DNA of 64,000 nucleotides from an uncultured Acidobacteriota bacterium (GCA_963829355.1 CAWHHZ010000020.1:4278-68277); one strand, 5' to 3'; counted from the first letter of the stretch, positions 23,536 to 59,423 are shown. Notes: generated by a model not told the origin, from the sequence alone. A program made the numbers and translations.

Positions 23536-23564
23536 CTCGGACGCCACCACAAAACCGCTTGCGG

Positions 23565-23715: not shown

Positions 23716-23800
23716 GTCTACGAGGAGTAGATTATTTACCGTAAATGGGTACTGATTTCCAGGATCAGTGGAATCTATCGAAACCAAAGACCTACCCCCA
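23716..23800 (+). repeat. Degenerate Y element
   Basis: TCTACgaggaGTAGA, CTGATttccagGATCAG, then ...AACCAAAGACCTACCCCCA. Confidence 0.45.
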
Positions 23801-32472: not shown

Positions 32473-32534
32473 GTCGAATCGCGACACCGCTTTGCGAAGT
32501 AAAGTTAAGATTCTGGCTCCGACCCTAACTTTAC
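32442..32534 (+). repeat. Composite repeat: about-20-nt tandem units plus T-hairpin
   Basis: Units CGACACCTTGTGCCGGAAAC / CGACAGCTCATGTCGAATCG / CGACACCGCTTTGCGAAGTA. T-hairpin GTAAAGTTAAG-ATTCTGGCTCCGAC-CCTAACTTTAC at 32499-32534. Confidence 0.8.
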
Positions 32535-33923
32535 GCGCGGTGGGGCTGCGACGCATGTCATCCACTCCAGCACGTCACGCTTGTACGCCGAATCATACTG
32601 AGTCGTCAGCGTGTAGCCGTTGACGGCCTGCACGACACTCATCAGCTCGATTCTGGGATCGATCCGGACCTCCCCCGCGCGGGGAACCTCCGCCGTTCTC
32701 GCGTCCGGCGATCTCACGAAATCCGTCATGAGCGACAGCGCGTGGCGGGAGACCCACTCGCGCTCCGGGTCCACCAGCATGTGCCCCATCCCGGGAAGGA
32801 CGACCGCCGAGATCCGTCCGTCGTTTCCGGGCCGATCCTCGAGCTCCGCCAGGCGACCTACGCTCGTCGCTACCGGCACGTTGTCCTGCTCGTCTTCTGC
32901 ACCATAGAGGACGAGTGTCGGAACGGAGTCACTGCCCCACGATCGAATCGGATCGTACTCGCCAACGCGCGCCCACCATCGCCAGCGCCAGTCATCCGGC
33001 TCCGAGGGCATGACCTCAGCGAACGGCGCCGCCGGACCCTCGAGCGCCGCTTGCCTCGCCTTCTCGTAGTCGATCCAGGAGAGCCGGCCAAGCGCGTGTT
33101 CCTGAATCAATTTCTGCAGGGCCATCGCGCTCGAAATCGCCTCTTGCGAAAATCCCTTCCCCTCCATGGTGTTCCGAATCTCGAAACCGATCTGATCGAA
33201 TACCGGGACCGCGGCCGACGAGATGCTCACCACGAATCCACCACGACCCGAGAATCGAGCAGCCAGTGGTGCGATCCAGCCACCCTGACTCAGACCCACC
33301 CAGCCGGTGTTCCCGGGATCGAGACCGGCCGTCTCCACCAGGAGATCGAAACCGGCAACGGCGTCGCGAGCCAGGGCATCGAACCCGACCTCCTTCCAAT
33401 CCCCTTCCGAGTCGCCCGAGCCCCGTTTGTCAGGGAAAAGAACGTCGACTCCCGCCACCGCCAGCGCATGCGCGAACGTGTAGGCCCACACGTTGTCGCG
33501 GTCGCTCGATCCGGACCCGTGGATCATCACTGCTCCCCGACCGGCGGGGCGTGAGGGCCGAAGCAGGATGCCCGCCAGGCGAACCCCGTCTGCGCTCCGA
33601 AACGTCACGCTCTCTACCTGATACGGTGCGTCCGGATCACGTGTCCATCGAGCACCATCCGGACTTACGAGCACCGCCTCTCCCTCAGCCGGCGCAATCC
33701 AGCGGAACGCGTTTTCCTCGTCGCCGATCTGGATGCTGCCGAAGGACGCATGATCAAAATCCAGACGTCGATGACTACCTCCAGGGCCCGGCGAGACGAG
33801 AACAGATGAGCCATCAGGCGTGCGGTACCAGCCGATCGGTGACGTCGCGCCTTCACCGTTTGCGGAGATCGTGATCGACGACAGCAGGGAGAAACAAAGG
33901 ATCTGGAGCAGAAATCGCTTCAC
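32505..33923 (-). CDS. Secreted alpha/beta hydrolase, with its 3' end running into the T-hairpin
   Basis: Signal peptide. HGSGSSDRDN and GLSQGGW (GxSxG). The last residues, APPRVKLGSEPES, are encoded by the repeat, so the gene looks truncated. Confidence 0.7.
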   Translation of the reverse strand: MKRFLLQILCFSLLSSITISANGEGATSPIGWYRTPDGSSVLVSPGPGGSHRRLDFDHASFGSIQIGDEENAFRWIAPAEGEAVLVSPDGARWTRDPDAPYQVESVTFRSADGVRLAGILLRPSRPAGRGAVMIHGSGSSDRDNVWAYTFAHALAVAGVDVLFPDKRGSGDSEGDWKEVGFDALARDAVAGFDLLVETAGLDPGNTGWVGLSQGGWIAPLAARFSGRGGFVVSISSAAVPVFDQIGFEIRNTMEGKGFSQEAISSAMALQKLIQEHALGRLSWIDYEKARQAALEGPAAPFAEVMPSEPDDWRWRWWARVGEYDPIRSWGSDSVPTLVLYGAEDEQDNVPVATSVGRLAELEDRPGNDGRISAVVLPGMGHMLVDPEREWVSRHALSLMTDFVRSPDARTAEVPRAGEVRIDPRIELMSVVQAVNGYTLTTQYDSAYKRDVLEWMTCVAAPPRVKLGSEPES

Positions 33924-34960: not shown

Positions 34961-35041
34961 TCATGCCGAATCGCGACACCGCTTTGCGAAGTGAAGTTAG
35001 AATTCTGGCTCTGACCCTAACATTACGGGCTCTAACTTTAC
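34961..35041 (+). repeat. Composite repeat: one 20-nt unit plus a T-hairpin with a duplicated 3' arm
   Basis: GTGAAGTTAGA-ATTCTGGCTCTGAC-CCTAACATTAC, then GGG-CTCTAACTTTAC. Confidence 0.75.
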
Positions 35042-35114: not shown

Positions 35115-35221
35115 ATTGATCCCGACGACTGTGGAAAGGGGAGCGGTACAGCCGAAGTGCGAGACAATCGCATCCAGAGCGCTACATTGCACTTTGGGTG
35201 TCCCCGGTTGGTGAGCACTCA
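35115..35221 (+). repeat. Z element, copy A (3' flank of the 76-aa gene)
   Basis: ATTGATCCCGACGAC...GTACAGCCGAAGTGCGAGACAATCGCATCCAGAGCGCTACATTGCACTTTGGGTGTCCCC. A near-identical copy lies at 36252-36356. Confidence 0.7.
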
Positions 35222-35449
35222 CCTCCGGTATCGCCGCAGCGCCTCGATGCTCTCGGCAGCTTCCTTCCGCGAACGGTACCCGTAGTCGATGATCGATACA
35301 GAGTCTGCTCCTACCGCGGCGATCGCCCACATCACGTCGGGGTCATTCGGTTCGCGCTCGGTGTCGTACCAATGAAGCTCGAGCGAGGTGGTGTCACCGT
35401 CGTACGCTTCGATCGCAATCGGCAGGAGCCGTTCGTCATGATCCGACAT
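35219..35449 (-). CDS. Small acidic protein (76 aa), unknown family, intact copy A
   Basis: MSDHDERLLPIAIEAYDGDTTSLELHWYDTEREPNDPDVMWAIAAVGADSVSIIDYGYRSRKEAAESIEALRRYRR. GAGG lies 13 nt upstream. Three further partial copies are present in the window. Confidence 0.55.
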   Translation of the reverse strand: MSDHDERLLPIAIEAYDGDTTSLELHWYDTEREPNDPDVMWAIAAVGADSVSIIDYGYRSRKEAAESIEALRRYRR

Positions 35450-35475
35450 CCCGCGATCGTACCTCGGCGACCTGC

Positions 35476-35757
35476 GGTTCTACTCCTCGTAGAATCCGAG
35501 ATCATCGTCAGGGTCTCGAACCAGCACACTGGAGGTGTGCCGGAAGGTAGCCGGTGGTAGCGCCGGAGGCGCAACCACCGGTGCAATGTCACCCACCCCA
35601 CCACGCAGCACCCCGGCAGGGGTGCCGGGACTCGCGGCCTGGGAAGACAGTTCATACCGCAGAGCGACACCTCATGCCGGAAACCGACAGCTCATGCCGA
35701 ATCGCGACGCGACTTTGCGAAGTAACGTTTGGATTCGAGGTCTGACCCCAAGTTTAC
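35476..35757 (+). repeat. Full composite repeat: Y fragment + H element + four 20-nt units + T-hairpin
   Basis: GGTTCTACtcctcGTAGAA; H at 35522-35627; 20-nt units at 35645-35720; T variant at 35722-35757. Confidence 0.8.
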
Positions 35758-35760
35758 GGG

Positions 35761-36020
35761 CTAATCGTAGGCTTTGCTTCGGTGGCGAATATAGAGAATG
35801 TCTACGACCTTCTGTGTGTCGTCGATCGAGAAACGATGCGGCAGTCACCGGCCCGTAGCCTCCATCTCGCCGGACCTCCCTCGAGCTTCTTGACTCCGCG
35901 AGGACGAGGATCGAAAGAGAGAGAATCAATCTTCTTCGTGACGCGGGAGGCGACACTCGCTGGCAGCCGGTCGTACTCCCTGGCCGCCGAAGGTTTGATC
36001 AGGACCTTGTACTCAGCCAC
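35761..36020 (-). pseudogene. RelE/ParE-family toxin with a 1-nt frameshift
   Basis: VAEYKVLIKPSAAREYDRLPASVASRV...WRLRAGDCRIV. After a T3 run (expected T4) the +1 frame reads FSIDDTQKVVDILYIRHRSKAYD and stops at 35761. Confidence 0.65.
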
Positions 36021-36251: not shown

Positions 36252-36356
36252 TTTGATCCCGACGACCGGGGAACGGGAGCAGTACAGCCGAAGTGCGAAA
36301 CATCGCATCCAGAGCGCTACATTGCACTTTGAGTGTCCCCGGGTGGTGGGCACTCA
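36252..36356 (+). repeat. Z element, copy C
   Basis: Near-identical to 35115-35221. Confidence 0.7.
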
Positions 36357-36464
36357 CCTCCGGTGTCGCCGCAGCGCTTCGATGCTCTCGTCAGCTTCCT
36401 CTCGCGAACGATCCCCATAGTCGATGATCGACACCGAGTCCGCTCCAACCGCGGCGATCGCCCA
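36354..36464 (-). pseudogene. 3' fragment of the 76-aa gene family
   Basis: Encodes WAIAAVGADSVSIIDYGDRSREEADESIEALRRHRR only. It abuts the truncated TcmP-like gene. Confidence 0.65.
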
Positions 36465-36465
36465 G

Positions 36466-37085
36466 GGTTCGACCATTACATCTTCGTCGAGCAGCGGAAG
36501 GATCGTTGTCGGGAGCTGGAGGAGCTGAGAACGGAGTTCCCGGAGCAGGCGGCTGAGATCGAGATCAGACAGGGCGATGCGAATCAGCAGATTCAGGATC
36601 TTTGTGGCAAGAGCTGTCAGAGCCATCGTGCGGTGCTGTTCCTCGATCCTTATGGCACCCAGGTTCACTGGGAGACGATCGAGGCTGTCGCCAGAACGGA
36701 GGCGATCGACATGTGGCTTCTGTTTCCGCTCGGCATCGGCGTCAATCGAATGCTCCCGCCATCTGGAGACGTGCCTCAGACGTGGAAGGAGACGCTGACT
36801 CGGCTCCTCGGTACTTCAGACTGGTACGATGAGTTCTATCGTGTGGAGCATGACGATACGTTGTTCGGGCCGGAGGAGCGCGTGGTGAAGGCGAGCGTCG
36901 ATGTCATCGGGCGTTACTTCAACGATCGCCTGAAGCAGATCTTTCCTGGTGTGGCGGAGCAGCCGGGCGTGCTGCGCAACTCCGCGAATTGCCCGCTCTA
37001 TCTCTTCTGCTTCGCGGCAGGGAACAAATACGGCGCGCCGATCGCACTGAACATCGCGAATCACCTTCTGAAGGAGCTGCGCTGA
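36466..37085 (+). pseudogene. tcmP: Three-Cys-motif partner protein (TcmP-like), 5'-truncated
   Basis: ...AVLFLDPYGTQVHWETIEAVARTEAIDMWLLFPLGIGVNRML... The N-terminal part of the track ORF is the antisense of the 76-aa gene fragment and Z element. Confidence 0.55.
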
Positions 37086-37828
37086 TGGCTGCCGGGACAG
37101 GAATCGAGTGGACCGAGGCGACGTGGAATCCCGTGACGGGTTGCACGAAGATCAGCCCGGGGTGTAAGCACTGCTATGCCGAGCGGATGGCGGAGCGTCT
37201 GCGGCTCATGGGGCAGGCGAACTATCGAAACGGCTTTCGGCTCACCTTGCAGCCCCACATGCTCGAGCTTCCGCTGAGGTGGAAGAAGCCTCGGACCATC
37301 TTCGTCAACTCGATGAGCGATCTCTTTCACGACGGCGTGCCTCTCGACTACATCCGGCAGGTCTTCGACGTGATGAAGCGCGCATCGTGGCACCGCTTCC
37401 AGGTGCTGACGAAACGAGCGAAGAGGCTGGCAGAGCTCGACCCTCACCTGGAGTGGCCGGAGAACGTCTGGATGGGCGTCAGCGTCGAGAGCTCTTCATA
37501 CCGCCATCGCATCGACGCCCTCCGCCAGACCGATGCCCGCATCAAGTTTCTCTCCCTCGAGCCGCTCCTCGGCCCGCTCCCCGACTTGAACCTCGACGGC
37601 ATCAACTGGGTGATCGTCGGCGGCGAATCCGGACCCGGCGCCCGTCCAATGGAGCCGGACTGGGCTCTCGACGTGAAGCGTCAATGCCACGATGCGTTGG
37701 TTCCTTTCTTCTTCAAGCAGTGGGGCGGGACAAACAAGAAAAAGGCGGGGAGAGTGCTGGAGGGGCGGACGTGGAATGAGATGCCGGCGGGCATGTCAGG
37801 CAACCCAGCATTCGCTCAGTCTTCATAG
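37085..37828 (+). CDS. DUF5131 / phage Gp37-Gp68 family protein
   Basis: [31 protein letters not shown] three-Cys N-terminus. The ATG overlaps the upstream stop (TGATG). Confidence 0.8.
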
Positions 37829-38443: not shown

Positions 38444-38523
38444 CTGAGAAGGATAACCGATCGTACTCAGGAGATTGATCCCGGCGAACATGGAGATCCG
38501 GGGTCAGGTTTGTGACCGACGGT

Positions 38524-38610
38524 GGTTCTACTGACCGTAGAAGTTTTGGCGGAATCGGCCTCGGATTCTACATCCCGTAGATTTGACCGCCGACCAAAGA
38601 CCTGACCCCA
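38524..38610 (+). repeat. Y element
   Basis: GGTTCTACtgaccGTAGAA...GGAATCGG...TTCTACatcccGTAGA-TTTGACCGCCGACCAAAGACCTGACCCCA. Confidence 0.8.
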
Positions 38611-38649
38611 AGGCTCCGCAAAGCTCCGCAAAGCTCCGAAAGCTCCGAG
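38611..38649 (+). repeat. 10-nt tandem repeat (GCTCCGCAAA-type)
   Basis: aggctccgca aagctccgca aagctccga aagctccga. Homologous tract with one more unit at 48281-48320. Confidence 0.75.
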
Positions 38650-38667
38650 GTCCCTAACTTCCCCTTT

Positions 38668-38723
38668 TTACTGACGATCTTCCGAAAAGAGAACGGTCTC
38701 GATCCGCTCGACCCGTGATTCGA
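38668..38723 (-). pseudogene. 3' fragment of the 84-aa coiled-coil gene (homolog of 48340..48594)
   Basis: Encodes ...ESRVERIETVLFSEDRQ plus an identical 3' flank. Homology stops near 38723. Confidence 0.6.
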
Positions 38724-38786
38724 TTCTAGCATGCGCCCATCGGGTCTGTGCGCCTGCGGCTGTGGGTCGGGCAATGGGCGACGCTC

Positions 38787-38877
38787 GGTTCGTGACTCGA
38801 TCGTAGAAATCTGAGCGGAATCGGCTTCAGATTCTACATCTCGTAGATTCGACCGCCGACCAAAGACCTGGCCCCAG
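38787..38877 (+). repeat. Y element (first arm degenerate)
   Basis: ...GTAGAAATCTGAGCGGAATCGGCTTCAGATTCTACATCTCGTAGATTCGACCGCCGACCAAAGACCTGGCCCCAG. Confidence 0.8.
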
Positions 38878-38890
38878 ATGGTCTGGCCCC

Positions 38891-38978
38891 GGTTCTACTG
38901 ATCGTAGAAATCTGAGCGGAATCGGCTTCAGATTCTACATCTCGTAGATTCGACCGCCGACCAAAGACCTGGCCCCAG
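38891..38978 (+). repeat. Y element (tandem with the previous copy)
   Basis: GGTTCTACtgatcGTAGAAATCTGAGCGGAATCGGCTTCAGATTCTACATCTCGTAGATTCGACCGCCGACCAAAGACCTGGCCCCAG. Confidence 0.85.
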
Positions 38979-39235
38979 AGGTCTGGCCCCAGAGGTCTCT
39001 GCTACAGCCACACAATTGCGAGAACGAGAATCGCGATGTCGGGCTCTGTCGGCAGGCGAGTTCACCGCGAGCACTCAAAAGTGTGATGGCTTGCCCTGAT
39101 ATTGTGTCAGGAGAATGATCCCCACCAGAGATCTGACCTTCTGAGGCTTGAGGGCCGGAGGAGTGACGCGCGACGGTTATTGGCGTGTTCCGCGGTTGCC
39201 ATCAATCTCGAACGGGCCTTCTGTACAATCGGAGC

Positions 39236-40209: not shown

Positions 40210-40282
40210 GGCTGTGGATGTAGTTTAACCAGAAGATGTTCAGTCCGAGCGAGAACTTCGGCGGTACAGTTCCATCGCCCCC

Positions 40283-40335
40283 GGATTCTACCCTTCGTGG
40301 AATTGACAGCCGACCAAAGACCGGGCACTGCCAGA
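40283..40335 (+). repeat. Partial Y element
   Basis: GGATTCTACccttcGTGGAATTGACAGCCGACCAAAGACCGGGCAC. Confidence 0.55.
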
Positions 40336-40344
40336 AGGGGCCTA

Positions 40345-40372
40345 CGCGAGTCGGGCCTGGAGACCCGACTCA
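40345..40372 (-). repeat. REP-like hairpin, partial, inverted orientation
   Basis: GCGAGTCGGGCCTGGAGACCCGACTCACC is the reverse complement of the first hairpin of the 13871 family. Confidence 0.6.
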
Positions 40373-40422
40373 CCGCACCGCGACAGGCATAGGCGGGGCT
40401 CCGCATATAATCTCCGCACACA

Positions 40423-43503: not shown

Positions 43504-43759
43504 AGCACACCGGAGGTGTGCCGGAAGGTAGCGGTGGTAGCGCCGGAGGCGCAACCACCGGTGCATGTCGCCCACCCCAACACGCAGCACCCCGGCAGGG
43601 GTGCCGGACGTCGCCCTGGGAAGACAGTTCATGCCGCAGAGCACACTCAGCCGGAAACCGACAGCTCATGCCGAATCGCGACACGACTTTGCGAAGTAAA
43701 GTTACGATTCTGGCTCCGGCCCTAACTTTAGGCGATTCTGGCTCCGGCCCTAACTTTAC
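43504..43759 (+). repeat. Full composite repeat: H element + 20-nt units + T-hairpin with duplicated loop and arm
   Basis: H at 43504-43606; units at 43621-43697; GTAAAGTTACG-ATTCTGGCTCCGGC-CCTAACTTTA, then GGCG-ATTCTGGCTCCGGC-CCTAACTTTAC. Confidence 0.8.
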
Positions 43760-44505: not shown

Positions 44506-44595
44506 TGACCCTGCCGTAATTGTCGCTCTACGACAGTAAGCTCACACCTCCTCTAAAGTATGCCCCAATGTATCTCTCCTTCCGAAGACCCCGCC

Positions 44596-44636
44596 TCGAA
44601 AACTTAACTTTCTAGCTCCGACGTTAAGTTTTCCGA
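44596..44636 (+). repeat. T' hairpin
   Basis: TCGAAAACTTAAC-TTTCTAGCTCCGAC-GTTAAGTTTTCCGA, a 13-bp stem with one bulged C. Confidence 0.8.
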
Positions 44637-44680
44637 CCCGTCGCCATTCGCGGGCTGGTGTCTGTCCTAAACATCTGAGC

Positions 44681-44770
44681 ATGATCTTCTCTCCGGACAG
44701 AAAGATTCTGGAGATCGTCGGTGACATAGAACCGGAACCGCTCGAGCTGTGGGTTGTGCTTTTCCATTAA
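44681..44770 (+). pseudogene. 5' fragment of a RES-toxin gene
   Basis: MIFSPDRKILEIVGDIEPEPLE... matches the start of 53595..54104 (VIFSPDRKILEVVGAIEPAPLE), then stops after 29 codons. Confidence 0.6.
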
Positions 44771-45559: not shown

Positions 45560-45633
45560 TCGCTTTTCGACAGGTCGCTCTCCTATCGTCCTCCCCACCA
45601 CGGAAGATCCGGCGGAGGTTTTTGCTAGACAGT

Positions 45634-45722
45634 GGTTCTACTGTGTGTAGAAGTGTGCGCAGAATCAGCTTCGGATTCTACGTCTCGTAGATTTGACCGC
45701 CGAACAAAGACCTGGCCCCCAG
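45634..45722 (+). repeat. Y element
   Basis: GGTTCTACtgtgtGTAGAA...TTCTACgtctcGTAGATTTGACCGCCGAACAAAGACCTGGCCCCCAG. Confidence 0.8.
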
Positions 45723-45897
45723 CCTCGAAGTGGTCGGAGTCGACGGAGGAGTTCTTGCCGTCTTTCAATGACGATTACGTCGCGGTTCAGCTGGAGGCGA
45801 TGGATTGGAATCTCGTCGGAGTGACGAATTTGGCTCAGTGCTCTCGCCACGGCTCAGAATAGCAATGATGTCAACCTGAAGATTCTCGAAGGCATCT

Positions 45898-45932
45898 GAA
45901 AACTTATATTTTGAGCTTTGAGGTTAAGTTCT
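45898..45932 (+). repeat. T'' hairpin variant
   Basis: GAAAACTTATA-TTTTGAGCTTTGAG-GTTAAGTTCT. Confidence 0.7.
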
Positions 45933-45973
45933 ACGATCGCAATCGGCAGAAGCCGTTCGTCATGATCCGACAT
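45933..45973 (-). pseudogene. 5' fragment (first ~13 codons) of the 76-aa gene family
   Basis: Encodes MSDHDERLLPIAI and is cut exactly at the T'' edge. The upstream leader is conserved with copy A. Confidence 0.6.
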
Positions 45974-45999
45974 CCCTCGATCGTACCTCGGCTACCTGC

Positions 46000-46272
46000 G
46001 GTTCTACTTCTCGTAGAATCCGAGATAATCGTCAGGGGTCTCGAACCAGCACACCGGAGGTGTGCCGGAAGGTAGCCGGTGGTAGCGCCGGAGGCGCAAC
46101 CACCGGTTCAAGACGACCCTCCCCAACACGCAGCACCCCGGTAGGGGTGCCGGGACTCGCGGCCTGGGAAGACAGTTCATGCCGCAGAGCGACACCTCAC
46201 GCCGAATCGCGACACGACTTTGCGAAGTAAAGTTTAGATTCGAGGTGTGACCCCAAGTTAAAGTTTTCCTTC
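46000..46272 (+). repeat. Full composite repeat: Y fragment + H + three 20-nt units + chimeric T-hairpin
   Basis: H at 46047-46153 (hairpin 3 loop GGTA instead of GGCA). One 20-nt unit fewer than the 35.6-kb copy. The 3' arm reads GTTAAAGTTTTCC, like T'. Confidence 0.8.
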
Positions 46273-46385
46273 TCGTAGAGTTCACCGCAGACCAAAGACC
46301 TCGCACCAGGGGTCTTCGGCTCGAAGACCCACAGCGCGCGAGGAATTCCTGAAATCACATTAACCTTTCGTGTTAATGTATTCTG

Positions 46386-47867: not shown

Positions 47868-47982
47868 ATGACAGCTCATGCCGCAGGGCGACAACTCATG
47901 CCGGCAACCGACAGCTCAGGCCGAATCACGACACCGCTTTGCGAAGTAAAGTGAAAATTCTGGCTCTGACCCTAACATTAAC
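47868..47982 (+). repeat. Composite repeat: 20-nt units plus T-hairpin
   Basis: ATGACAGCTCATGCCGCAGG / GCGACAACTCATGCCGGCAAC / CGACAGCTCAGGCCGAATCA / CGACACCGCTTTGCGAAGTA, then GTAAAGTGAAA-ATTCTGGCTCTGAC-CCTAACATTAAC. Confidence 0.8.
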
Positions 47983-48198
47983 CGCGCGGCTCACGATCAT
48001 CCATCCGGATCAGATCGTACCTCGGTCGCCCAATGATCCACTCCTCGTAGACCCAGATGGACGACTCAACTCATAAACCGCATGACCATGTGCGGTCGTG
48101 TGCCTCAGTACAGTTGGCACACGTGATTGTACCTCGGGAGGTGCTTTCCACCCCGGAGAGGAACAGCGAGCCGCTGGGGCGCAGCCCGACTTTGCAGA

Positions 48199-48235
48199 GT
48201 AAAGTTACTTTTCTGGCTCTGACCCCAATTTAATC
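48199..48235 (+). repeat. T-hairpin (degenerate arms)
   Basis: GTAAAGTTAC-TTTTCTGGCTCTGAC-CCCAATTTAATC. Confidence 0.65.
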
Positions 48236-48239
48236 TTCC

Positions 48240-48281
48240 CACATCCCGTAGATTTGACCGCCGACCAAAGACCTGACCCCA
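48240..48281 (+). repeat. Partial Y element (3' half)
   Basis: CACATCCCGTAGATTTGACCGCCGACCAAAGACCTGACCCCA. Confidence 0.7.
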
Positions 48282-48320
48282 AAGCTCCGCAAAGCTCCGC
48301 AAAGCTCCGCAAAGCTCCGA
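48281..48320 (+). repeat. 10-nt tandem repeat, 4 units
   Basis: AAAGCTCCGC x3 plus AAAGCTCCGA. Confidence 0.8.
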
Positions 48321-48594: not shown

Positions 48595-48837
48595 TCGGTT
48601 TCCTCCGCCGGATCGTCGAGAGGCTGGATCCAGAGATCAGTTTACCATCCCATCGTCAGGTGCAGTCCCCTGCGTCGGATGGTGGATTCCACCGCAACAG
48701 ACGCCGCCAGAGTCGATCTACTCCGATGAGGTATGAGAGGAGGCCCTCCAGGAGAACGACTGAATCGCTTTTCGACGGCGGCCCTCCGACCGACCTCCAC
48801 AACACAGAAGATCCGCCGGGGGTTCTTGCTCGACAGT

Positions 48838-48931
48838 GGTTCTACTGACCGTAGAAATTTCAACGGGATCGACTTCGGATTCTACCTCTCGTAGATTCGA
48901 CCGCCGACCAAAGACCTGCCCCCAGAGGTCG
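48838..48931 (+). repeat. Y element
   Basis: GGTTCTACtgaccGTAGAA...TTCTACctctcGTAGATTCGACCGCCGACCAAAGACCTGCCCCCAGAGGTC. A decayed DUF3368 3' end precedes it (48720-48762). Confidence 0.8.
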
Positions 48932-51499: not shown

Positions 51500-51795
51500 A
51501 GACAGAGCCCTCGACGACCAACGGATCGTCCGACCGACGCTCGAGCACGTGATCGATCTGGTGATGGAGGAGTTCGCGGAAACGCTCGAGACTCTCCGTC
51601 GGAGGAACCCGTCGCCCCGGCCGAAAAGCCTTTGCGCTTCTCGCCCACGAGGAATGCGGACTGACGCATCGGATGATCGGGGAGTATCTGGGCATCTCTC
51701 CCTCAGCCGTCTCCCAGATGCTCCGGGCGGCGACCGAGCTCGAGCGGAAGGACCGGCAATTCGGCGAAGCAATTCACCGAATCCGCGCCTCGAAA
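51500..51795 (+). pseudogene. Frameshifted C-terminal remnant of an HTH (DnaA_C-like) gene that ends in the T' hairpin
   Basis: LEHVIDLVMEEFAETLETLRR, then in the +1 frame RRPGRKAFALLAHEECGLTHRMIGEYLGISPSAVSQMLRAATELERKDRQFGEAIHRIRASKT-stop. The stop lies within the T' 5' arm. Confidence 0.55.
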
Positions 51796-51828
51796 ACTTA
51801 ACTTTCTAGCTCCGACGTTAAGTTTTCC
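51790..51828 (+). repeat. T' hairpin
   Basis: TCGAAAACTTAAC-TTTCTAGCTCCGAC-GTTAAGTTTTCC. Confidence 0.8.
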
Positions 51829-51829
51829 C

Positions 51830-52076
51830 CGATCTGAACCTAGACGGCATCGACTGGGTGATCGTCGGCGGTGAATCCGGCCCCGGAGCCCGGCCGATGG
51901 AACCGGAATGGGTTCTCGACCTGAAACGTCAATGCCACGATGCGTTGGTTCCTTTCTTCTTCAAGCAGTGGGGCGGGACGAATAAGAAGAAGGCTGGGAG
52001 AGAACTGGAGGGACGGACCTGGAACGAAATGCCGAAGCATACGGTAGAGAGCGTGGCGGGCGGTCCTCCTTCCTAG
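51830..52076 (+). pseudogene. 3' fragment of a DUF5131 gene (paralog of 37085..37828)
   Basis: [69 protein letters not shown]. Homology starts at the first base after the T' hairpin. Confidence 0.75.
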
Positions 52077-52880: not shown

Positions 52881-52956
52881 TCGCTTTTCGACAGGTCGCT
52901 CTCCTATCGTCCTCCCCACCACGGAAGATCCGGCGGAGGTTTTTGCGCTCGACAGC

Positions 52957-53070
52957 GGTTCTACTGACCGTAGAACTTTGAACGGAATCGGCTTCGGATT
53001 CTACCTCTCGTAGAATTGACCGCCGACCAAAGACGTGGCCCCCAGCCTCGAAGACGTGGCCCCCAGCCTC
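52957..53070 (+). repeat. Y element with a duplicated tail
   Basis: GGTTCTACtgaccGTAGAA...TTCTACctctcGTAGAATTGACCGCCGACCAAAGACGTGGCCCCCAGCCTCG, then a repeat of AAGACGTGGCCCCCAGCCTCG. Confidence 0.8.
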
Positions 53071-53094
53071 GCTACTAGAACCCTCGAAGCACCC

Positions 53095-53129
53095 GGAAAC
53101 TCATATTTTGAGCTCTGAGGTTAAGTTCT
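53095..53129 (+). repeat. T'' hairpin variant
   Basis: GGAAACTCATA-TTTTGAGCTCTGAG-GTTAAGTTCT. Confidence 0.65.
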
Positions 53130-53253: not shown

Positions 53254-53592
53254 ATGGCTGGGATCGTGGCCGAACGGCTCGATAGCATGAGGAAAAAGAC
53301 TGGCATCACCGGCCGGGATGTGGCGCAGCTTCTGGATACGACGCCTGAGACGGTTTCCAGATGGAGCTCCGGAAAGGTCGAGCCGCAGAGAGATCGGCTG
53401 CACAGACTGCTGGCTCTCGAATTCATTCTCGATGAGCTGCTCGAGTTCTACAGCCGCGACGATGCCAGACTATGGTTGTTCACGCCTCACCGTCTGCTCA
53501 GCGGTCGGACGCCGGCGGAAAAGATCTCCGAGGGGCAGGATGATGAAGTACGAACCATCATCGCGCAGCTACGCGACGGAGCGTACGTCTGA
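53254..53592 (+). CDS. Xre-HTH / DUF2384 antitoxin (ParS/MbcA-like)
   Basis: HTH (GITGRDVAQLLDTTPETVSRWSSGK) plus a DUF2384-like C-terminus (WLFTPHRLLSGRTPAEKI). AGGAGG lies upstream. Confidence 0.75.
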   Translation: MAGIVAERLDSMRKKTGITGRDVAQLLDTTPETVSRWSSGKVEPQRDRLHRLLALEFILDELLEFYSRDDARLWLFTPHRLLSGRTPAEKISEGQDDEVRTIIAQLRDGAYV

Positions 53593-53594
53593 GC

Positions 53595-54104
53595 GTGATC
53601 TTCTCTCCCGATCGCAAGATTCTGGAGGTCGTCGGTGCCATTGAACCGGCACCTCTCGAGGCGTCGGTGTTCCGCTGGTGCTTTTCCCACGTCGATCCGC
53701 TACGGCCGAATCGAAGCGGAGCGCGATGGAACCCACCAGACGTCGAAGCCCTTTATGCGAGCCTCGAGCGGGACGTCTGTCTGGCGGAGATGAACCATCT
53801 TCTGGATCTTCACTCCATACCGATCACCAAGAGCAGGGTTTTGTGCACCATAGAGGTCAGCCTCCAGTCGGTCCTCGAGCTGACTGAAGACACTCTGGCC
53901 GAACTGGGTTTATCTGCAGACGTGCTGAGCAGTGTCGATCTCAGCAGATGTCAACAGGTTGGCGGCGCAGTGCAGTGGCTCAATCATGACGGCTTGCTCG
54001 TCCCGTCCGCACGCCACGAGCAAGGTCGGAACCTCGTGATCTTTCAGACAAATCACGATGAAGAGTCGATCGTCGAGCTCACCGACAAAGCTCCCCTCGA
54101 ATGA
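53595..54104 (+). CDS. RES domain toxin (ParT/MbcT-like)
   Basis: GARWNPP...ALYASLE...LLVPSARHE supplies the R/E/S positions. GTG start 3 nt after the antitoxin stop. Confidence 0.75.
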   Translation: MIFSPDRKILEVVGAIEPAPLEASVFRWCFSHVDPLRPNRSGARWNPPDVEALYASLERDVCLAEMNHLLDLHSIPITKSRVLCTIEVSLQSVLELTEDTLAELGLSADVLSSVDLSRCQQVGGAVQWLNHDGLLVPSARHEQGRNLVIFQTNHDEESIVELTDKAPLE

Positions 54105-54135: not shown

Positions 54136-54172
54136 GTCAAGTTACTTTTCTAGCTCCGACGTTAACTTTACT
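54136..54172 (+). repeat. T' hairpin (variant arms)
   Basis: GTCAAGTTAC-TTTTCTAGCTCCGAC-GTTAACTTTACT. Confidence 0.65.
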
Positions 54173-54386: not shown

Positions 54387-54499
54387 ACCTTCCCAGTGGC
54401 ATTATCCAATCCTACCTCGTTCGTGATCAGCGCGTGGGTAGGTGGGCAGGTCTGTCGTCCAAAAAACAGGTCCGGAGTCAAGTCTTTGGTCGACGATGT

Positions 54500-54583
54500 G
54501 GTTCTACTCAGAGTAGAGTTCGCGCGGAATCGGCTTAAAATTCCACATCTCGTTCCCTTCTAAGACCTGACCCCAGAGGTCCC
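54500..54583 (+). repeat. Y element
   Basis: GGTTCTACtcagaGTAGAG...GGAATCGGCTT...CTAAGACCTGACCCCAGAGGTC. Contains the stop codon of the AbiEii-like gene. Confidence 0.7.
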
Positions 54584-55969
54584 TTCTTTTTCCTTAAATC
54601 GGCCGGATGTATCCTCGGCGTCCGCGACAGTCGTAACCTTGTAATCCTTGTGAGGACGAATCGAAGAGTCCGGCTTCACTCGCTCGAACTCGCGACCACA
54701 CTGCTGACACTCCACCACATACTTTGCTCGAGACGATCTTCTCGACCTTGCGGGTCGGGAACCGAAACCGGAACCTCCGACGATCGGTGGTGTTGAGACG
54801 CGTCCGGAAGAGGAAAACTCTACTCGAAAGACCGGTGTGAATGACTGGTTCATGACCTCGATGTTTTCAATTCGGTCGAGGCGATACGCCCGGATCTGCC
54901 CGTCGGTGTGCCGCCGCGCGAACAGCAGAACGTTGCCGTCCCTGCTCTCGCGCAACGAATACGGTTCTATCGGTCGACGGCTTCCCTGGTATCCCAGATT
55001 GATCAGCAGCCGGTTCACTCCGGCGAAACGAATCCGCTCGATGACAGAACCAGAGCCCCATGATCGGATCGTCGGCGGAACATGGAACGGAACTGCTGAC
55101 GACGCACTGGGGACTCTCATCTCGGTGAGCGCCTCTCGCGGTAGCGGTGTCCCATTCAGCCAGTCGAAGAGGTTCTCGAGCTCCGACCAGTAATCGGTGA
55201 ACGGGGGCAACGCGGGAAGCTGGTGCGCGAGCATGTTCTCCCATTCGGTCTCGAGCAGTTCCCGCGCAATCTCGGTGATCACTGTCTCAGGTGAAGGCAG
55301 GGCGACACCTTTCGTTTCGCACTTATCCTTCAGGATCGACGCAATCTCTGGACCGCGAAGCTCAAACTCTTCGCGTCGGTGAAGGGTCACGATGTCGAAG
55401 AGGTCGCGTGGTCGCCCACGTTCGCCCATCGCCCGAATCTTCTCGGCGAATACCCCTTCGAGACTGTAGCAGAGCACCGTCGCCGGATCGGGCCAGGCAT
55501 CCGGATATGGGTGAGTGATCTCACGCCGCACTGTCTCCCGCACGACGACCTCAGCAAGCAGATCGAGCTTGATCGAGAACTCCATTTGCTGTCCGCCGAG
55601 GCCGCGGTAGTAGATCTTTCCCTGAAGGCTGCCGGGGCCTCGCGGCTTCAACAGCGGAGGACGGGCGAGAAGCTGGATTCCGGACTCCTCTTCGATCTCG
55701 CGAAGAACCCGTTCCAGAAGGGGTGCGACGGCGTCGGCGTCGATTGGACCATCAGGTAGAACGGTGAAGTCGAGATCCTCGGAGAAGCGGTAGGTCTCGA
55801 TGAAACACTTCTTCAGGCAGGTGCCGCCCTTGAATGCCCACGAACTGCCGAGAACCTCATCTCTGCCGATTCCCCACAGGAGCCATCCGATGACCCAGTC
55901 CTTCTCCACCACTTTTTCGGCGAGCTGCCACTCGACCGCTCGATCCTGCAGATCCAGTCGTGTAATCAT
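54560..55969 (-). CDS. abiEii: AbiEii/AbiGii-family nucleotidyltransferase toxin fused to a WYL-like domain and a CxxC tail
   Basis: WAFKGGTCLKKCFIETYRFSEDLDFT (DUF1814/AbiEii). C-terminal RRPIEPYSLRESRDGNVLLFARRHTDGQIRAYRLDRIENIEV (WYL-like), then ECQQCGREF. ATGA overlap with the upstream gene. Confidence 0.7.
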   Translation of the reverse strand: MITRLDLQDRAVEWQLAEKVVEKDWVIGWLLWGIGRDEVLGSSWAFKGGTCLKKCFIETYRFSEDLDFTVLPDGPIDADAVAPLLERVLREIEEESGIQLLARPPLLKPRGPGSLQGKIYYRGLGGQQMEFSIKLDLLAEVVVRETVRREITHPYPDAWPDPATVLCYSLEGVFAEKIRAMGERGRPRDLFDIVTLHRREEFELRGPEIASILKDKCETKGVALPSPETVITEIARELLETEWENMLAHQLPALPPFTDYWSELENLFDWLNGTPLPREALTEMRVPSASSAVPFHVPPTIRSWGSGSVIERIRFAGVNRLLINLGYQGSRRPIEPYSLRESRDGNVLLFARRHTDGQIRAYRLDRIENIEVMNQSFTPVFRVEFSSSGRVSTPPIVGGSGFGSRPARSRRSSRAKYVVECQQCGREFERVKPDSSIRPHKDYKVTTVADAEDTSGRFKEKEGTSGVRS

Positions 55970-56780
55970 GTTGAAGTCCCCGCGCCGATCTCGACATTCA
56001 CTCTCAGATTCCACTCCTTGGTGATCGTTCCCTCGAGATTCACATCCGGATCGAGGTAGGTCAGGCCCTGGCTGATCCTCTCCTTGCAGGACGCGACCAA
56101 ATCGGGAGCATCAAACGCGAGGCTGGTGACGAGGTACCCCATACGCTTGAAGACGGTCTTGTTGCCGAGCCGGTCGCCATAGCTGACCAGAAGGTCGTCG
56201 TCGCGGTGTTCGCTTTCCAGGTAGTTCGTCAGGATGTCCGACGCGTGGCGAATTCCTCCCCCCATCCATGGCTCGTCGAGAATGTCGATGACGGTGCGGG
56301 CAGGATCCGATACGTTCACCCGGTTCTGACCGCGCCACACGCGTTTCAGTCCGAAGTGCATCGTCTCCTGACGGAACTTCAGTCGTATCGGGCTCTGCTG
56401 AATCTGGTCGGTACGCGATCGGATGTTGGCCGCCGTGACGACGACGATTCCGCGGAACAATTGCTCCGTCAGTCCCCAGTGATTCGCCGCACTCCATCCA
56501 CCGATGTAGCACGGCTCGACTCGACTGAAGCGGCCACCCACGGATCAGCGAGCCATGCACCTGGATCCTTGGTGCCCAATGGGACGGTGCCATATAGCCC
56601 CTGCTTGACCCGGGTGAGCCATCCGCGCTTCGTCAGGTACGCAAGAAGTCGCCGGGTACGGTCCCGTGGCAGATCCAGCGCGCCGGCAGCCTCGGCAGCC
56701 GTGAAGGGTCCGGTGAAAGCCCTGTGTAGTGCGTCGAGCCGAAGCCGATTCTCCCGTTCGATCCCTTGAGGTACATCCAT
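55966..56780 (-). pseudogene. abiEi: AbiEi-family antitoxin, split by a frameshift near 56.5 kb
   Basis: The N-terminal HTH part (FTAAEAAGALDLPRDRTRRLLAYLTKRGWLTRVKQGLYG) is in the frame of ORF 56469..57362. The C-terminal part (EPCYIGGWSAANHWGLTEQ...DPARTVIDILDEP) is in the frame of 55966..56541. Confidence 0.65.
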
Positions 56781-56990
56781 AGTGCGAATTATCTCATACA
56801 ACGGGTAATATTGCACTGTGGCTATACCGAGTAACTCGAGGGTCCTTTTCTCGTGCTCGAAACGACTCGGCTCCATCACGATTTCCCATTTCGGGACTGA
56901 TCGTACCTCGGTCGCCCGATGATCCACTCCTCGTGGACCCACGGGCTGAGTCCACTCATCAACCGTATGAGCCACGTCTGGCCAGGCGGT

Positions 56991-57101
56991 GCCGTAGACT
57001 CGACCGCCTACCATAGACCGGGCACCGAACGTCTGTGCGGAATCGGCTTCGGGTTCTACCTCTCGTAGATTGACCGCCGATCGCAGACCTGACCCCCAGA
57101 G
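56991..57101 (+). repeat. One and a half Y elements
   Basis: CGTAGACTCGACCGCCTACCATAGACCGGGCAC, then ...GGAATCGGCTTCGGGTTCTACctctcGTAGATTGACCGCCGATCGCAGACCTGACCCCCAGAG. Confidence 0.7.
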
Positions 57102-57170
57102 TTCGCGGAGATTGATCCCGACGAATGAGGATCCGCGAACGCTCGGGTATTTCAGGCCGGTCGTCCAGAA

Positions 57171-57226
57171 CCACGACATCACTTTGCGAAGTAAAGTTAA
57201 GATTCTGGCTCCGGCCCTAACTTTAC
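57171..57226 (+). repeat. One 20-nt unit plus T-hairpin
   Basis: CCACGACATCACTTTGCGAAGTA, then GTAAAGTTAAG-ATTCTGGCTCCGGC-CCTAACTTTAC (57191-57226). Confidence 0.8.
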
Positions 57227-57358
57227 TCTTCCAATCGTTCTCGCCAACATTGCGACGCTGATCTCCGGCACGTTGCGCGGAAACATCACGCGCTGATGAG
57301 CTCGAACCATCTGTTGCGGTGCTCGACTCCGGATCGAGAGGCTCTCTCGTAGCCACAG

Positions 57359-58396
57359 TCACAGCTTTATCCGGCGTATCCTCACACCTGATGAGTCAGA
57401 CTGGACAACCGTGAAGTCGATGATACCGATCGTCTTCCCCTCTTCCGACTCGGCGCGTACTCGCCATCTGCCGGGGGCGGCATTGGCCTTCGAAGAATAT
57501 CCGCGATACCCATCGGCCCGGCCACTTCGAATCGTGAAAGGAATCACGTCCGAGGTGATCCATTTGCCGGCGACTTCATCCCGTTTCTGCCATCGGTGCC
57601 GGACCGTGGTCTCGAGTCCACCGGGAATGAAGATCGACGAGAAGCAGAAGACCGGCTCCGAGTCCCGCCGGTGGAACACGGGTGAAGAGCGAAGCCAGAA
57701 CCGTCGCGGCCGGGACGGCTCGATCTGCGCGGTGTAGTGGCCGTCTCGCTTCTCGACATGATGGGCGATGAAAAGCTCCTTTTTAACCAGCGGGACCGGA
57801 GGAAGAATGTTGGCGACATTGAGAATCAGGAGTACCGCACCGACCGCGAAGGATGGAAGGACCGATGCCTTCTTCTTAGACAGAAGCCACAGGCCCAGCG
57901 TCGCCCCGAGCGCGGCACCGATGCTCACATAGAACCACGTCGGCTGCATGCTGCGGAAAGCATGGGGCAGTGCGAAGTTGAAGAACATGATTCCGCAGGT
58001 CGTAAACAGCGTCCAGGAGAGCGTGAGCCGTGAGTAGCGGTGTTCGACAAACTCGTTCCCGATCAGAAGGACGGTCAGCCCCAGCACGAGAATGAACCCA
58101 CCGATCTCACTGGAGCTGAGAAAATAGAAAATTACGAGAGCACTGAAGATCCCTCCGAAGAAAAACTGGAGCGCGACGTTCTGATAGCCCTTCCACCGGT
58201 GCTCGATCTCTCGACCGACGACGAGGAGAATGGTCGCGGCGATGAGGTAGTAAACCGTGAGGACCACGAAATCGATCGGGACGATCCGGCGGCCCAGTGT
58301 GAAGGCGTCGAAAACGAATCCTCCGAAAAACGATATTGCGGGAAGGGTCCGGGCAAGACGAGGATACCGCGGGCTCAGTTCGTCCGGGTTCAGCAT
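57359..58396 (-). CDS. Polytopic membrane protein with a DUF2914-like C-terminal domain, paralog 2
   Basis: 345 aa, collinear with 22239..23276. About 25 substitutions by my manual alignment. Confidence 0.6.
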   Translation of the reverse strand: MLNPDELSPRYPRLARTLPAISFFGGFVFDAFTLGRRIVPIDFVVLTVYYLIAATILLVVGREIEHRWKGYQNVALQFFFGGIFSALVIFYFLSSSEIGGFILVLGLTVLLIGNEFVEHRYSRLTLSWTLFTTCGIMFFNFALPHAFRSMQPTWFYVSIGAALGATLGLWLLSKKKASVLPSFAVGAVLLILNVANILPPVPLVKKELFIAHHVEKRDGHYTAQIEPSRPRRFWLRSSPVFHRRDSEPVFCFSSIFIPGGLETTVRHRWQKRDEVAGKWITSDVIPFTIRSGRADGYRGYSSKANAAPGRWRVRAESEEGKTIGIIDFTVVQSDSSGVRIRRIKL

Positions 58397-58491
58397 TCAG
58401 GGCCCCGATTGTAACCGGGAAGCCGAGCCATCGTCCGGGAGCGTTCTGGCCCCAACTTAAAATCGTCCCGGAGCGGTAAGCGCTTTGTGAA

Positions 58492-58527
58492 GTAAAGTTT
58501 AGTTTGGAGGTCCGGCCCCAACTTAAC
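58492..58527 (+). repeat. T-hairpin
   Basis: GTAAAGTTTAG-TTTGGAGGTCCGGC-CCCAACTTAAC. A loop-plus-arm fragment (TTCTGGCCCCAACTTAAAA) lies at 58445-58464. Confidence 0.7.
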
Positions 58528-58529
58528 AG

Positions 58530-58776
58530 CGGGAGATGGCGAAGCTCGTCAATCGTTACCCCGCGCTTGCTGGGCGCCGGCAAAGGCCGGAACGCCGCCG
58601 ATCCATGGGTCATCGCCCTGGCGAAAATCGATAGACGCGACGTCGTGACCTACGAGACCCGCTCGACGAAAATCGAGAAACCAAAGATCCCAGATGTCTG
58701 CGACGCCGAAGGAATCGAGACCATCGATTTGATTGAGGTCGTCCCCCGCGAAGGCTGGAGCTTCCGGTCGGGGTGA
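58530..58776 (+). pseudogene. C-terminal fragment of a DUF4411 (PIN-like) gene
   Basis: ...AADPWVIALAKIDRRDVVTYETRSTKIEKPKIPDVCDAEGIETIDLIEV. It begins directly after the T-hairpin with no plausible N-terminus. Confidence 0.5.
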
Positions 58777-58802
58777 GATGTGCGGATCCGAAGACCACCG
58801 CC

Positions 58803-58840
58803 TCGAAAACTTACCTTTCTAGCTCCGACGTTAAGTTTCC
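58803..58840 (+). repeat. T' hairpin
   Basis: TCGAAAACTTACC-TTTCTAGCTCCGAC-GTTAAGTTTCC. Confidence 0.75.
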
Positions 58841-58843
58841 TTG

Positions 58844-58969
58844 ATCTCCGAGTATCTGGGCATCTCCCAGCCCGCCGTTTCCCAGATGCTGGAGACGGCC
58901 AGGGCACTCCAGCGAAAGGACGAGAAGTTCGGTCGAGCGGTTGAAGGCATCCGAAAACTTATAATTTGA
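58844..58969 (+). pseudogene. C-terminal remnant of the HTH gene family, ending in T''
   Basis: ISEYLGISQPAVSQMLETARALQRKDEKFGRAVEGIRKLII-stop. It starts right after T' and stops inside T''. Confidence 0.55.
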
Positions 58970-58989
58970 GCTTTGAGGTTAAGTTTTCC
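58952..58989 (+). repeat. T'' hairpin variant
   Basis: CGAAAACTTATA-ATTTGAGCTTTGAG-GTTAAGTTTTCC. Confidence 0.7.
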
Positions 58990-59120
58990 CCTCGCTGCAT
59001 CGCCCTCGGTCGTCGTCACGGCTGCAAAAACGAAAGGCAAAAGACAAAGACGCACCTAGGAAAATACAAAGGCAAAAGCAACTACAGATCTACCCTACTT
59101 GACAGGGTCACTCCATATCA

Positions 59121-59198
59121 GCCGGTGGTGGCGCCGGAGGCGCAACCACCGGCTCAAGGCCCCCACCCGACCACGCAGCACCCCGGCAGGGGCGCCGG
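59121..59198 (+). repeat. Partial, decayed H element (hairpins 2 and 3 only)
   Basis: CCGGTGGTgGCGCCggaGGCGCaACCACCGG ... GCACCCCggcaGGGGCGC, with one stem mismatch. Partial Y tails follow near 59240-59290 and 59345-59385. Confidence 0.6.
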
Positions 59199-59423
59199 AC
59201 TACGGACGCCGCCAAGTCGGGTTCGAGTCCTCACCCCGCGGCATGTACGTCTCGTAGATCAACCAAAAACAAAAGACCTGGCACTGAGGTCGGCTTTTCG
59301 GTCAACTGCTGACATCCGCAGAAGTCGGGTCAGGAAAAGGCCAGAATTCTACTCGTTAGACTCTGTCGCAAAATCGAAGACCTGACCTGCGTTTGCACGT
59401 AGCTTCGGAAGGGGCTGCACGGG

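Follow-up and report, generated by a model that had tools for sequence, protein, structure and literature searches.

Whether hairpin-forming repeats that lie at the edges of broken genes are places where DNA was cut and joined, or passive sequences beside the damage, is the question raised by a 64,000-nucleotide stretch from an uncultured Acidobacteriota bacterium (GCA_963829355.1, CAWHHZ010000020.1:4278-68277; this whole stretch is called the window below). A mosaic of repeats and small modules spans ~32.3-59.4 kb of it, a 27-kb island, and in this island the original prediction had placed seven gene breakpoints, base for base, at the edges of hairpin repeats named T, T', T'' and Y. We have found that three of these junctions are exact, namely those of a DUF5131 gene, of a small helix-turn-helix (HTH) gene and of p76, a gene for a 76-aa protein, and that one (DUF4411) is approximate, whereas the hydrolase and AbiEii-WYL genes proved not to be truncated. 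Three lines of evidence, recurrent endpoints with unrelated partners, truncations at the feet of the hairpins and the exchange of a module between relatives, argue for the base of the stem as the place of cutting and joining. Our reading, to which we give about an even chance of being right, is that the T elements serve in cis as the sites of a recombination or transposition system that is specific to the lineage and acts in trans, with the logic of an integron without being a canonical one.

A loop-anchored search together with a covariance model built here detected 16 T-type hairpins, all on the plus strand and all within 32497-58992; none was detected in the remaining 37 kb of the window or in unrelated loci of relatives. 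T, T' and T'' form a single family of short, probably cis-acting elements of 58-71 nt, found in a lineage of uncultured Thermoanaerobaculia, in which a leader of ~25-30 nt is followed by a 36-nt stem-loop with an AT-rich 11-bp stem and a loop of 13-14 nt. Conservation is higher in the loop (TTCTRGCTCYGAC) than in the stem, the core of which (AASTT/AASTT) covaries. Compensatory flips separate T (AAGTT...AACTT) from T' (AACTT...AAGTT) while the orientation of the loop stays constant, and across 20 copies GC occurs 10 times and CG 6 times at pair 12-40, UA 11 times and AU 4 times at pair 8-44. Covariation scored 0.213 as compared with 0.10 for shuffles (0 of 500 reached the observed value), controls with slid partners scored lower, and since the stem covaries beyond the shuffles the hairpin was evidently kept by selection. 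In roughly one copy out of two, the outermost 3 bp of the stem do not pair. Other identities of the element were considered and rejected: a coding sequence for the T leader (there are stops in the frames), an Xer/dif-like or other tyrosine-recombinase core site (the arms are 11 bp but the spacer is 14 bp), a group II intron remnant (no Rfam match) and an intrinsic terminator (a terminator scan found 0 of the 16 hairpins, with their AT-rich stems and 13-14-nt loops). Rfam returned zero matches for T, Y or the repeat D16, permissive thresholds included.

The ends of these elements recur from copy to copy. The right end of the T'/T'' unit, directly after GTTAAGTTTTCC, is identical at 44634, 51828 and 58988, where the right flanks are unrelated, and the T' units 44577-44634 and 58784-58840 (58 nt) have both ends in common; the left part of this unit is the 3' end of the small HTH gene, whose stop codon lies within the left arm. 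Three minimal T units start at one left end, equivalent to 35692. When compared with the fullest copy (35407-35757), nine T copies all finish at equivalents of 35754-35762 and have nested left ends, at equivalents of 35407, 35523, 35643, 35664, 35692 (3 copies) and 35703; T carries the leader, and in 3 copies the GC-rich, three-hairpin D16 lies further left. As random decay yields no repeated identical endpoints, it is suggested that the hairpins are, or were, joints of DNA rearrangement. Target-site motifs or duplications, which had been thought worth seeking at the junctions, were not seen: no target-site duplication was seen beside the minimal T and T' units that were checked, and the bases to the left of the units vary (CGGGG, GCCGG, CTCCT, GCGGA) with no common motif.

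The DUF5131 3' fragment was said to start at the edge of T', and its ungapped homology to the intact gene at 36989-37828 (37578-37786 = 51826-52034, 88.5%) indeed begins at 51826, with the conserved T' unit ending at 51828 and matching the copy at 44634, so that the joint is fixed to an overlap of 2-3 nt (TCC). The fragment covers Pfam model positions 178-243 of 243, and as its differences from the intact copy are mostly synonymous (proportion of synonymous differences, pS, 0.41; pN/pS 0.07) it derives from a separate, long-functional copy and not from a local duplication followed by decay. The HTH remnant, also placed right after a T', starts 1-2 nt past the hairpin 58805-58840, the segment 58842-58991 being homologous to 51674-51830, that is, to the 3' part of the HTH gene plus hairpin. 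The 13-codon stub of p76 is cut, as proposed, at the edge of T'', with the joint at 45931-45934: residues 1-13 match 45973-45935, and DNA homology to 35407-35689 starts at 45931, directly after the AAGTT of the T'' right arm (45926-45930). For DUF4411 the prediction held for the gene piece and only approximately for the edge, since a C-terminal fragment (Pfam positions 101-159 of 159, aligning from residue 92 of a 156-aa homolog) does follow T, and its detectable homology starts at 58567, 40 nt past the T edge at 58526. The alpha/beta hydrolase, thought to be truncated by T, is complete; five homologs end 2-6 residues past query residue ~410, placing its natural end at ~32690, ~155 nt from the T edge at 32534. 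The hydrolase frame has lost its natural stop, and ~60 extra codons (32535-32690) run on to end in T. The AbiEii-WYL gene, supposedly cut by Y, is likewise of full length (484 aa vs a 482-aa homolog aligned over residues 16-456), and the minus-strand 72-aa open reading frame (ORF) that stops within T' at 54136-54171 has no family match. Each T-type hairpin closes two of the three frames on both strands, and ORFs that end inside these repeats are thus to be expected.

Further joints of the same kind were found in the island. Two T hairpins directly precede left-truncated Y elements, which start at 46264 and 48237; taken as units, the two joints resemble each other at ~76%, and one old event may lie behind both. 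The T at 47946-47989 is followed at 47991 by a second left-truncated piece of the p76 upstream region. The segments starting at hairpin feet are therefore those of DUF5131, HTH, p76, the p76 upstream piece and the two Y elements, with DUF4411 at <=40 nt. Among ~24 breakpoints in the 27 kb, 4-6 independent homology breakpoints lie <=3 nt from the 16 hairpin feet, an excess over chance with a binomial P of ~3e-6 to 6e-10. Chimeric joins made at repeats by the metagenome assembler might come to mind for a window taken from a single 70.6-kb contig of a metagenome-assembled genome (MAG) in which repeats are frequent. Such an artefact is, in our judgement, scarcely credible, as the joint overlaps of 2-3 nt are far shorter than the k-mer of any assembler, elements and joints of these kinds occur in independent JGI assemblies as well, and the fragments carry their own divergence history.

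Exact-pattern scans for T gave zero matches in GTDB species genomes and JGI metagenome contigs, and a scan of GTDB genomes guided by the p76 protein gave none either; the GTDB and JGI contig collections apparently do not include this lineage. Homologs of p76 that are 80-85% identical were found in a series of JGI metagenomes, on contigs that carry T-type hairpins and Y-like pieces beside toxin-antitoxin modules. When L010 (with L012 and L013) was compared with L014, these being contigs from two JGI metagenomes, a common module of 1,494 bp with 0 mismatches was seen, which sits in two unrelated contexts and at both sides of which identity stops at once. The module contains a T half-site, a second T-like copy, GC-rich hairpins, p76, a Phd-like antitoxin, its 139-aa partner and an inverted T hairpin. 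Its ends are inverted T half-sites (AAGTTRGAATTCTGGCTCTGAY), as the end AAGTTAGAATTCTGGCTCTGAT and its inverted counterpart correspond to the T left arm plus loop and make 22-bp imperfect inverted ends. Neither in L010 nor in L014 does the module have direct repeats beside it, and its flanks in L014 are inverted, not direct, repeats. In a further contig (L015), segments separated by 13 kb in the window are brought together, beside T copies. From the module and the L015 joins it follows that T sites delimit units that change neighbours between close relatives.

In the mechanism that we propose, the element would be recognised as a folded single strand, through stem shape and loop sequence, by an enzyme encoded elsewhere in the genome, and would be cut and rejoined at the stem base, at the foot itself or 3 bp further in, on the outer border of the AASTT pentamer. 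Joining to non-cognate positions nearby, through an anchored deletion or when a module copied incompletely is inserted, would place a hairpin directly before the distal part of the former downstream DNA, and would account for the truncated DUF5131, HTH, p76 (twice), DUF4411 and Y segments. Reading of the site in folded, single-stranded form, as with integrons or HUH-type systems, is favoured over a classical inverted-repeat transposase because of the single orientation, the covarying stem with its conserved loop and the absence of target-site duplications. The junctions, the orientation, the covariation, the common 3' ends and the exchange in relatives are observed; single-strand recognition, the enzyme, the cleavage position, the chemistry and any present-day activity are inferred, and the process may be site-specific recombination, transposition or copy-based insertion.

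Several points weigh against this reading, and the prediction that the hairpins are sites of breakage and joining accordingly stands in part only. All of the evidence comes from one MAG contig, as assembled sequence, and the T family is known from one genome and from short metagenome contigs, few in number. The ORFs scanned in the 64-kb window, in which no six-frame scan for decayed genes was made, yielded no domain of an integrase or other recombinase, a transposase, an HUH enzyme or a reverse transcriptase. Three of the seven junctions (hydrolase, AbiEii-WYL and, as far as it can be judged, the 72-aa ORF) are not breakpoints. In the island, hairpins are missing from many of the fragment joints (for example 36465-36488, 44671, 44754, 48719-48721 and 57334), from which it follows that general decay and illegitimate recombination were also at work; at the first of these a C-terminal fragment of p76 abuts a 5'-truncated TcmP gene. 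The exchange seen in L010 and L014 could be site-specific or could be homologous recombination inside the 22-bp cores, and the inverted pair in the relatives resembles terminal inverted repeats, agrees less well with a mechanism that is strictly strand-specific and acts on single strands, and keeps a transposon reading alive.

The T elements might instead be passive repeats in a gene graveyard, that is, regulatory or 3'-end elements of cassette genes spread by segmental duplication, with joints made by ordinary illegitimate and homologous recombination in a toxin-antitoxin island that is dispensable, and with the hairpin-edge cases conspicuous only since repeat edges get inspected. The joints away from hairpins, the three trivial cases, RecA-type recombination in the common cores and the lack of an enzyme gene nearby would all fit such a picture, and the direct orientation would be the expected residue of unequal crossing-over or tandem duplication. 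We nevertheless hold it to be unlikely, while taking it seriously. Identical endpoints recur (three T'/T'' right ends, three minimal-T left ends and two complete 58-nt T' units), six truncated segments lie at hairpin feet with a P of ~3e-6 or lower, a joint from a hairpin to the middle of a gene is impossible by homologous recombination, and the hairpins do not score as intrinsic terminators.

The inverted ends bring in non-autonomous transposons with terminal inverted repeats, such as elements like miniature inverted-repeat transposable elements (MITEs) or mobile insertion cassettes, which a DDE transposase would move from a gene located elsewhere; the 36-nt hairpin would then represent a minimal element of two inverted ends and the 1,494-bp module a version with cargo. 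Terminal inverted repeats are present, both as the 22-bp ends of the module and in the hairpin arms themselves, and the outer 3 bp that are so often unpaired would fit termini at the AASTT outer edge. Like MITEs and mobile insertion cassettes, the T elements are short and non-autonomous, have versions with cargo and no transposase, and occur in varied contexts. Unlike MITEs, they have no target-site duplication at any unit, stand in a single orientation in the window (16 of 16 copies), and combine common 3' ends with nested 5' ends. The inverted flanks in L014 also speak against this explanation, as does the finding that gene halves do not occur on both sides of an element, and the G:C to C:G flip of the stem between T and T' with a fixed loop suits an enzyme that reads structure, not one that binds ends by their sequence. 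We consider this explanation improbable, a little more so than that of passive repeats.

Integrons are the textbook case of hairpin-guided gene capture, and their attC sites have L'' and L' boxes, an unpaired central spacer and extrahelical bases in a length of ~55-140 nt. The T-type site folds into a hairpin of 36 nt whose 11-bp stem is unbroken, and it lacks L boxes, central spacer and extrahelical bases. The island resembles an integron, or an attC-site cluster that has no integron-integrase (CALIN), in its array of one orientation, its short structured sites at cassette 3' ends that overlap stop codons, its cargo rich in toxin-antitoxin genes, its homogeneous sites per array and a recognition that would need a maintained hairpin. 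Unlike an integron or CALIN, it has joints at the stem base and not at G/TT in the R' box, a conserved loop sequence, modules in which genes run on either strand and fragments are numerous, and several families of repeats (T, Y and D16), and its relatives have inverted T copies. Most CALIN have no integrase nearby (PMC4889954), and the island is alike in this respect; 16 T sites on one strand with no nearby intI would count as a CALIN as defined there only if the sites were attC. A true integron remnant would be a CALIN with very divergent attC, in which the truncations were made by IntI acting between attC and secondary sites, and two published sources indicate that integrases can insert cassettes outside att sites (bioRxiv 10.1101/2022.09.11.507474; PMC4889954). 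The small, mostly promoterless-looking cassettes would suit this view, T' and T'' fit the R boxes RYYYAAC/GTTRRRY (ACTTAAC...GTTAAGT), and Acidobacteria have chromosomal integrons with a taxon-specific attC model (PMC8352920). When the Acidobacteria attC profile (106 positions, GCCUAAC...GUUAGGC) was rebuilt from Supplementary Data 1 of that paper as a filter hidden Markov model and run with nhmmer --max, this test of primary sequence came up empty for the whole window, with the T, T', T'' and Y copies all unmatched and a lowest E-value of 1.4 at an unrelated place. Furthermore, the boxes of T are in reverse order (GTTAAG...CCTAAC), the arms covary as a pair, which implies a crossover outside the stem and not at G/TT, and no tyrosine-recombinase domain or intI was found in the scanned ORFs of the window, array neighbours included. 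A derivation from integrons is therefore very improbable.

In IS200/IS605 elements and in the repetitive extragenic palindromes (REPs) and their inverted doublets (REPINs) served by REP-associated tyrosine transposases (RAYTs), imperfect palindromes act as strand-specific cis sites with no target-site duplication, the enzyme can act in trans and cleaves at a set distance from the hairpin foot, and REPINs are mobile as a unit. The T elements match these systems in their palindromic cis sites and their lack of target-site duplications, and on our reading would also match them in being strand-specific, in a cut at a set distance from the foot, in an enzyme supplied in trans and in inverted pairs that can move together. 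They differ in showing no conserved 4-5-nt target motif beside their left ends and in their AT-rich stems with a large, conserved loop; no gene for TnpA (Y1 HUH) or RAYT was found among the scanned ORFs of the window, and all T copies lie in one 27-kb stretch of the 64 kb seen, unlike REPs, which are dispersed between genes. The T family appears to be undescribed, of the hairpin-guided cassette or repeat type and outside the integron family.

The DUF2914 gene occurs twice in the window (22216-23324 and 57334-58446; 92% identity), both times beside array repeats. Six relatives (L003-L008) hold it as a single copy in a conserved UDPGT-DUF2914-Metallophos core context with no repeats, and for this reason a core-type DUF2914 gene seems to have been captured into the array. 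Such a capture would be explained, together with the common 3' and nested 5' ends and the 5'-truncated genes after hairpins, by an integron-independent cassette system in which modules are copied from a fixed 3' hairpin to a variable 5' end and inserted after another hairpin, the copying being either the reverse transcription of transcripts that end in hairpins or a one-ended transfer of the rolling-circle type. We regard this copy-based variant as improbable, slightly more so than the transposons with inverted ends. If true, it would provide a natural example of cassette making; to our knowledge the origin of integron cassettes is unknown, as is the existence of other hairpin-based capture systems.

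Returning to the T elements as cis-acting sites served in trans, the joints would record repeated breakage at one position of a folded element, in an island of cassette-like layout whose sites are other than attC, and in a phylum that is known almost entirely through metagenomes. If an enzyme were tied to the T sites, these would constitute a new family of structure-guided recombination sites and open a route to study the shuffling of toxin-antitoxin and defence genes in Acidobacteriota. If there were none, the island would be an example of misleading repeat edges, in which three of seven coincidences are ORFs entering AT-rich, stop-rich repeats. The features are collected in Table 1.

Table 1. 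Positions of the hairpin elements, companion repeats and adjoining genes in the window.
Feature	Position	Strand	Remarks
T hairpin, first in array	32499..32534	+	read-on tail of hydrolase ORF ends inside
Alpha/beta hydrolase ORF	32505..33923	-	family homology ends ~32690; last ~60 codons are read-on tail
T hairpin	34991..35026	+	minimal unit from 34961
Full 76-aa gene (p76)	35219..35449	-	most often duplicated gene of the island
Reference composite: D16, T leader, T hairpin	35518..35757	+	hairpin 35722-35757
Intact DUF5131 gene	36989..37828	+	breakpoint equivalent 37578
T hairpin with 28-nt duplication of loop/right arm	43696..43759	+	hairpin 43696-43731
T' unit, 58 nt	44577..44634	+	same ends as 58784-58840
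T'' hairpin	45898..45932	+	outer 3 bp of right arm replaced at joint
13-codon 5' stub of 76-aa gene	45935..45973	-	left end of truncated copy (45931-46261) of unit 35407-35757
T hairpin	46228..46261	+	right joint to 5'-truncated Y (46264-46315)
T hairpin and short tail	47946..47989	+	joined at 47990/1 to left-truncated p76 upstream piece
T hairpin	48199..48234	+	right joint to 5'-truncated Y (48237-48288)
HTH gene, real frame	51565..51801	+	TAA stop in T' left arm; N-terminal part in other frame
T' unit, last HTH codons and 36-nt hairpin	51777..51828	+	hairpin 51792-51827
Parts of T' hairpin	51792-51827		left arm GAAAACTTAAC; 14-nt loop TTTCTAGCTCCGAC; right arm GTTAAGTTTTC
DUF5131 3' fragment	51826..52076	+	homology 51826-52034; ORF remainder 51858-52076
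T'' hairpin	53095..53129	+	
T/T' hybrid hairpin	54136..54171	+	minus-strand 72-aa ORF stops inside
AbiEii-WYL gene, full length	54560..56014	-	stop and last ~7 codons in Y right arm
T hairpin	57191..57226	+	minimal unit from 57161
Partial T (loop and right arm), then T hairpin	58444..58526	+	partial T 58444-58465; hairpin 58493-58526
DUF4411 C-terminal fragment	58527..58776	+	detectable homology from 58567
T' unit	58784..58840	+	hairpin 58805-58840; HTH 3' remnant from 58841/2
HTH 3' remnant	58842..58943	+	continues into T''
T'' hairpin	58953..58988	+	
D16 copies	23427-23549, 35518-35628, 43504-43613, 46043-46153, 59120-59214	+	
Y copies, first part	38494-38990, 40274-40337, 45605-45726, 46264-46315, 48237-48288	+	
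Y copies, second part	48831-48931, 52926-53050, 54476-54585, 56983-57105	+	

The window has a G+C content of ~60%, and in protein look-ups the nearest named relatives of its proteins were Thermoanaerobaculia MAGs (Acidobacteriota). The island is bordered on the left by a molybdopterin oxidoreductase operon and a SLAC1-type channel, and on the right by an AraC-type regulator with an HTH and an MmeI-type restriction-modification gene. A syntenic relative (L001) tracks the window to ~31.1 kb, then diverges and has no array, indicating that the island sits in a variable region. The modules of the array share one orientation, and the majority have a T-type element at their right end. They carry toxin-antitoxin pairs, an AbiE system, core-type genes that seem to have been captured, and gene fragments in number; the cargo comprises DUF433/DUF5615 (twice), UPF0175/DUF3368 (twice, 98% identical), HigB/HTH-M78, Xre/RES, AbiEi/AbiEii-WYL, a TcmP/DUF5131 pair, a kinase-FGE fusion, the hydrolase, a TetR and the DUF2914 gene. 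In TcmP (36333-37085), the partner of DUF5131, ~75 N-terminal model positions are missing. An 84-nt piece of the Xre-RES junction (44671-44754, a copy of 53585-53668, 83%) lies between T' and a UPF0175 gene, and in the duplicate module the position that it holds is taken by the DUF5131 fragment. Searches of plasmid and phage collections gave zero DNA matches.

Like the T elements, the companion repeats are all on the plus strand. D16 is GC-rich and has three perfect hairpins with CCGGAGG-type loops; it is present in 5 copies, 3 of which lie directly left of T, and fold z-scores of -2.4 and -3.1 were obtained. The Y family has 12 copies, with small TTCTAC-N5-GTAGAA hairpins and a right-end hairpin (AAGACCTGNCCCC); some of its right ends carry tandem duplications of ~20 nt (38876-38990 and 53035-53074), and Y-like pieces were also seen at 23718-23800 and 59246-59390. 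Besides the full gene, p76 has copies at 32224-32430, 36357-36488 and 45935-45973, and it is a lineage-specific gene that always adjoins T elements and toxin-antitoxin pairs. The structure predicted for its protein, with moderate confidence (predicted local distance difference test, pLDDT, 72), has a beta-beta-beta-beta-alpha topology, and no significant match to this model was found in the PDB, the best being a Pur-alpha repeat (E 0.59), a fold that binds single-stranded nucleic acid. The HTH gene (51549-51809) needs a +1 frame change, its N-terminal part being read in frame with 51549 and the helix-turn-helix in frame with 51565-51801, and its peptide had no detectable homologs among 5.8 billion proteins.

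No tRNAs were called in the window. Directly past the last D16 copy, at 59214-59250, a string resembling a tRNA T-arm (GGTTCGAGTCC) was noticed at a place where no tRNA is called, and this string may be the remnant of an old attachment site at the right end of the island. The sole Rfam match in the window is an Acido-Lenti-1 RNA (2479-2529), which falls within a self-complementary stretch of ~245 nt (2294-2538); a stretch 76% similar to 2294-2538 occurs within the 1,494-bp module of L010 and L014. Inverted repeats are rare in the window (6 of 232 self-match segments), and among them are short inverted matches (91-97%) of 13874-13902 and 14012-14045 to 40341-40374, which tie the island to the region at 13.9-14.0 kb.

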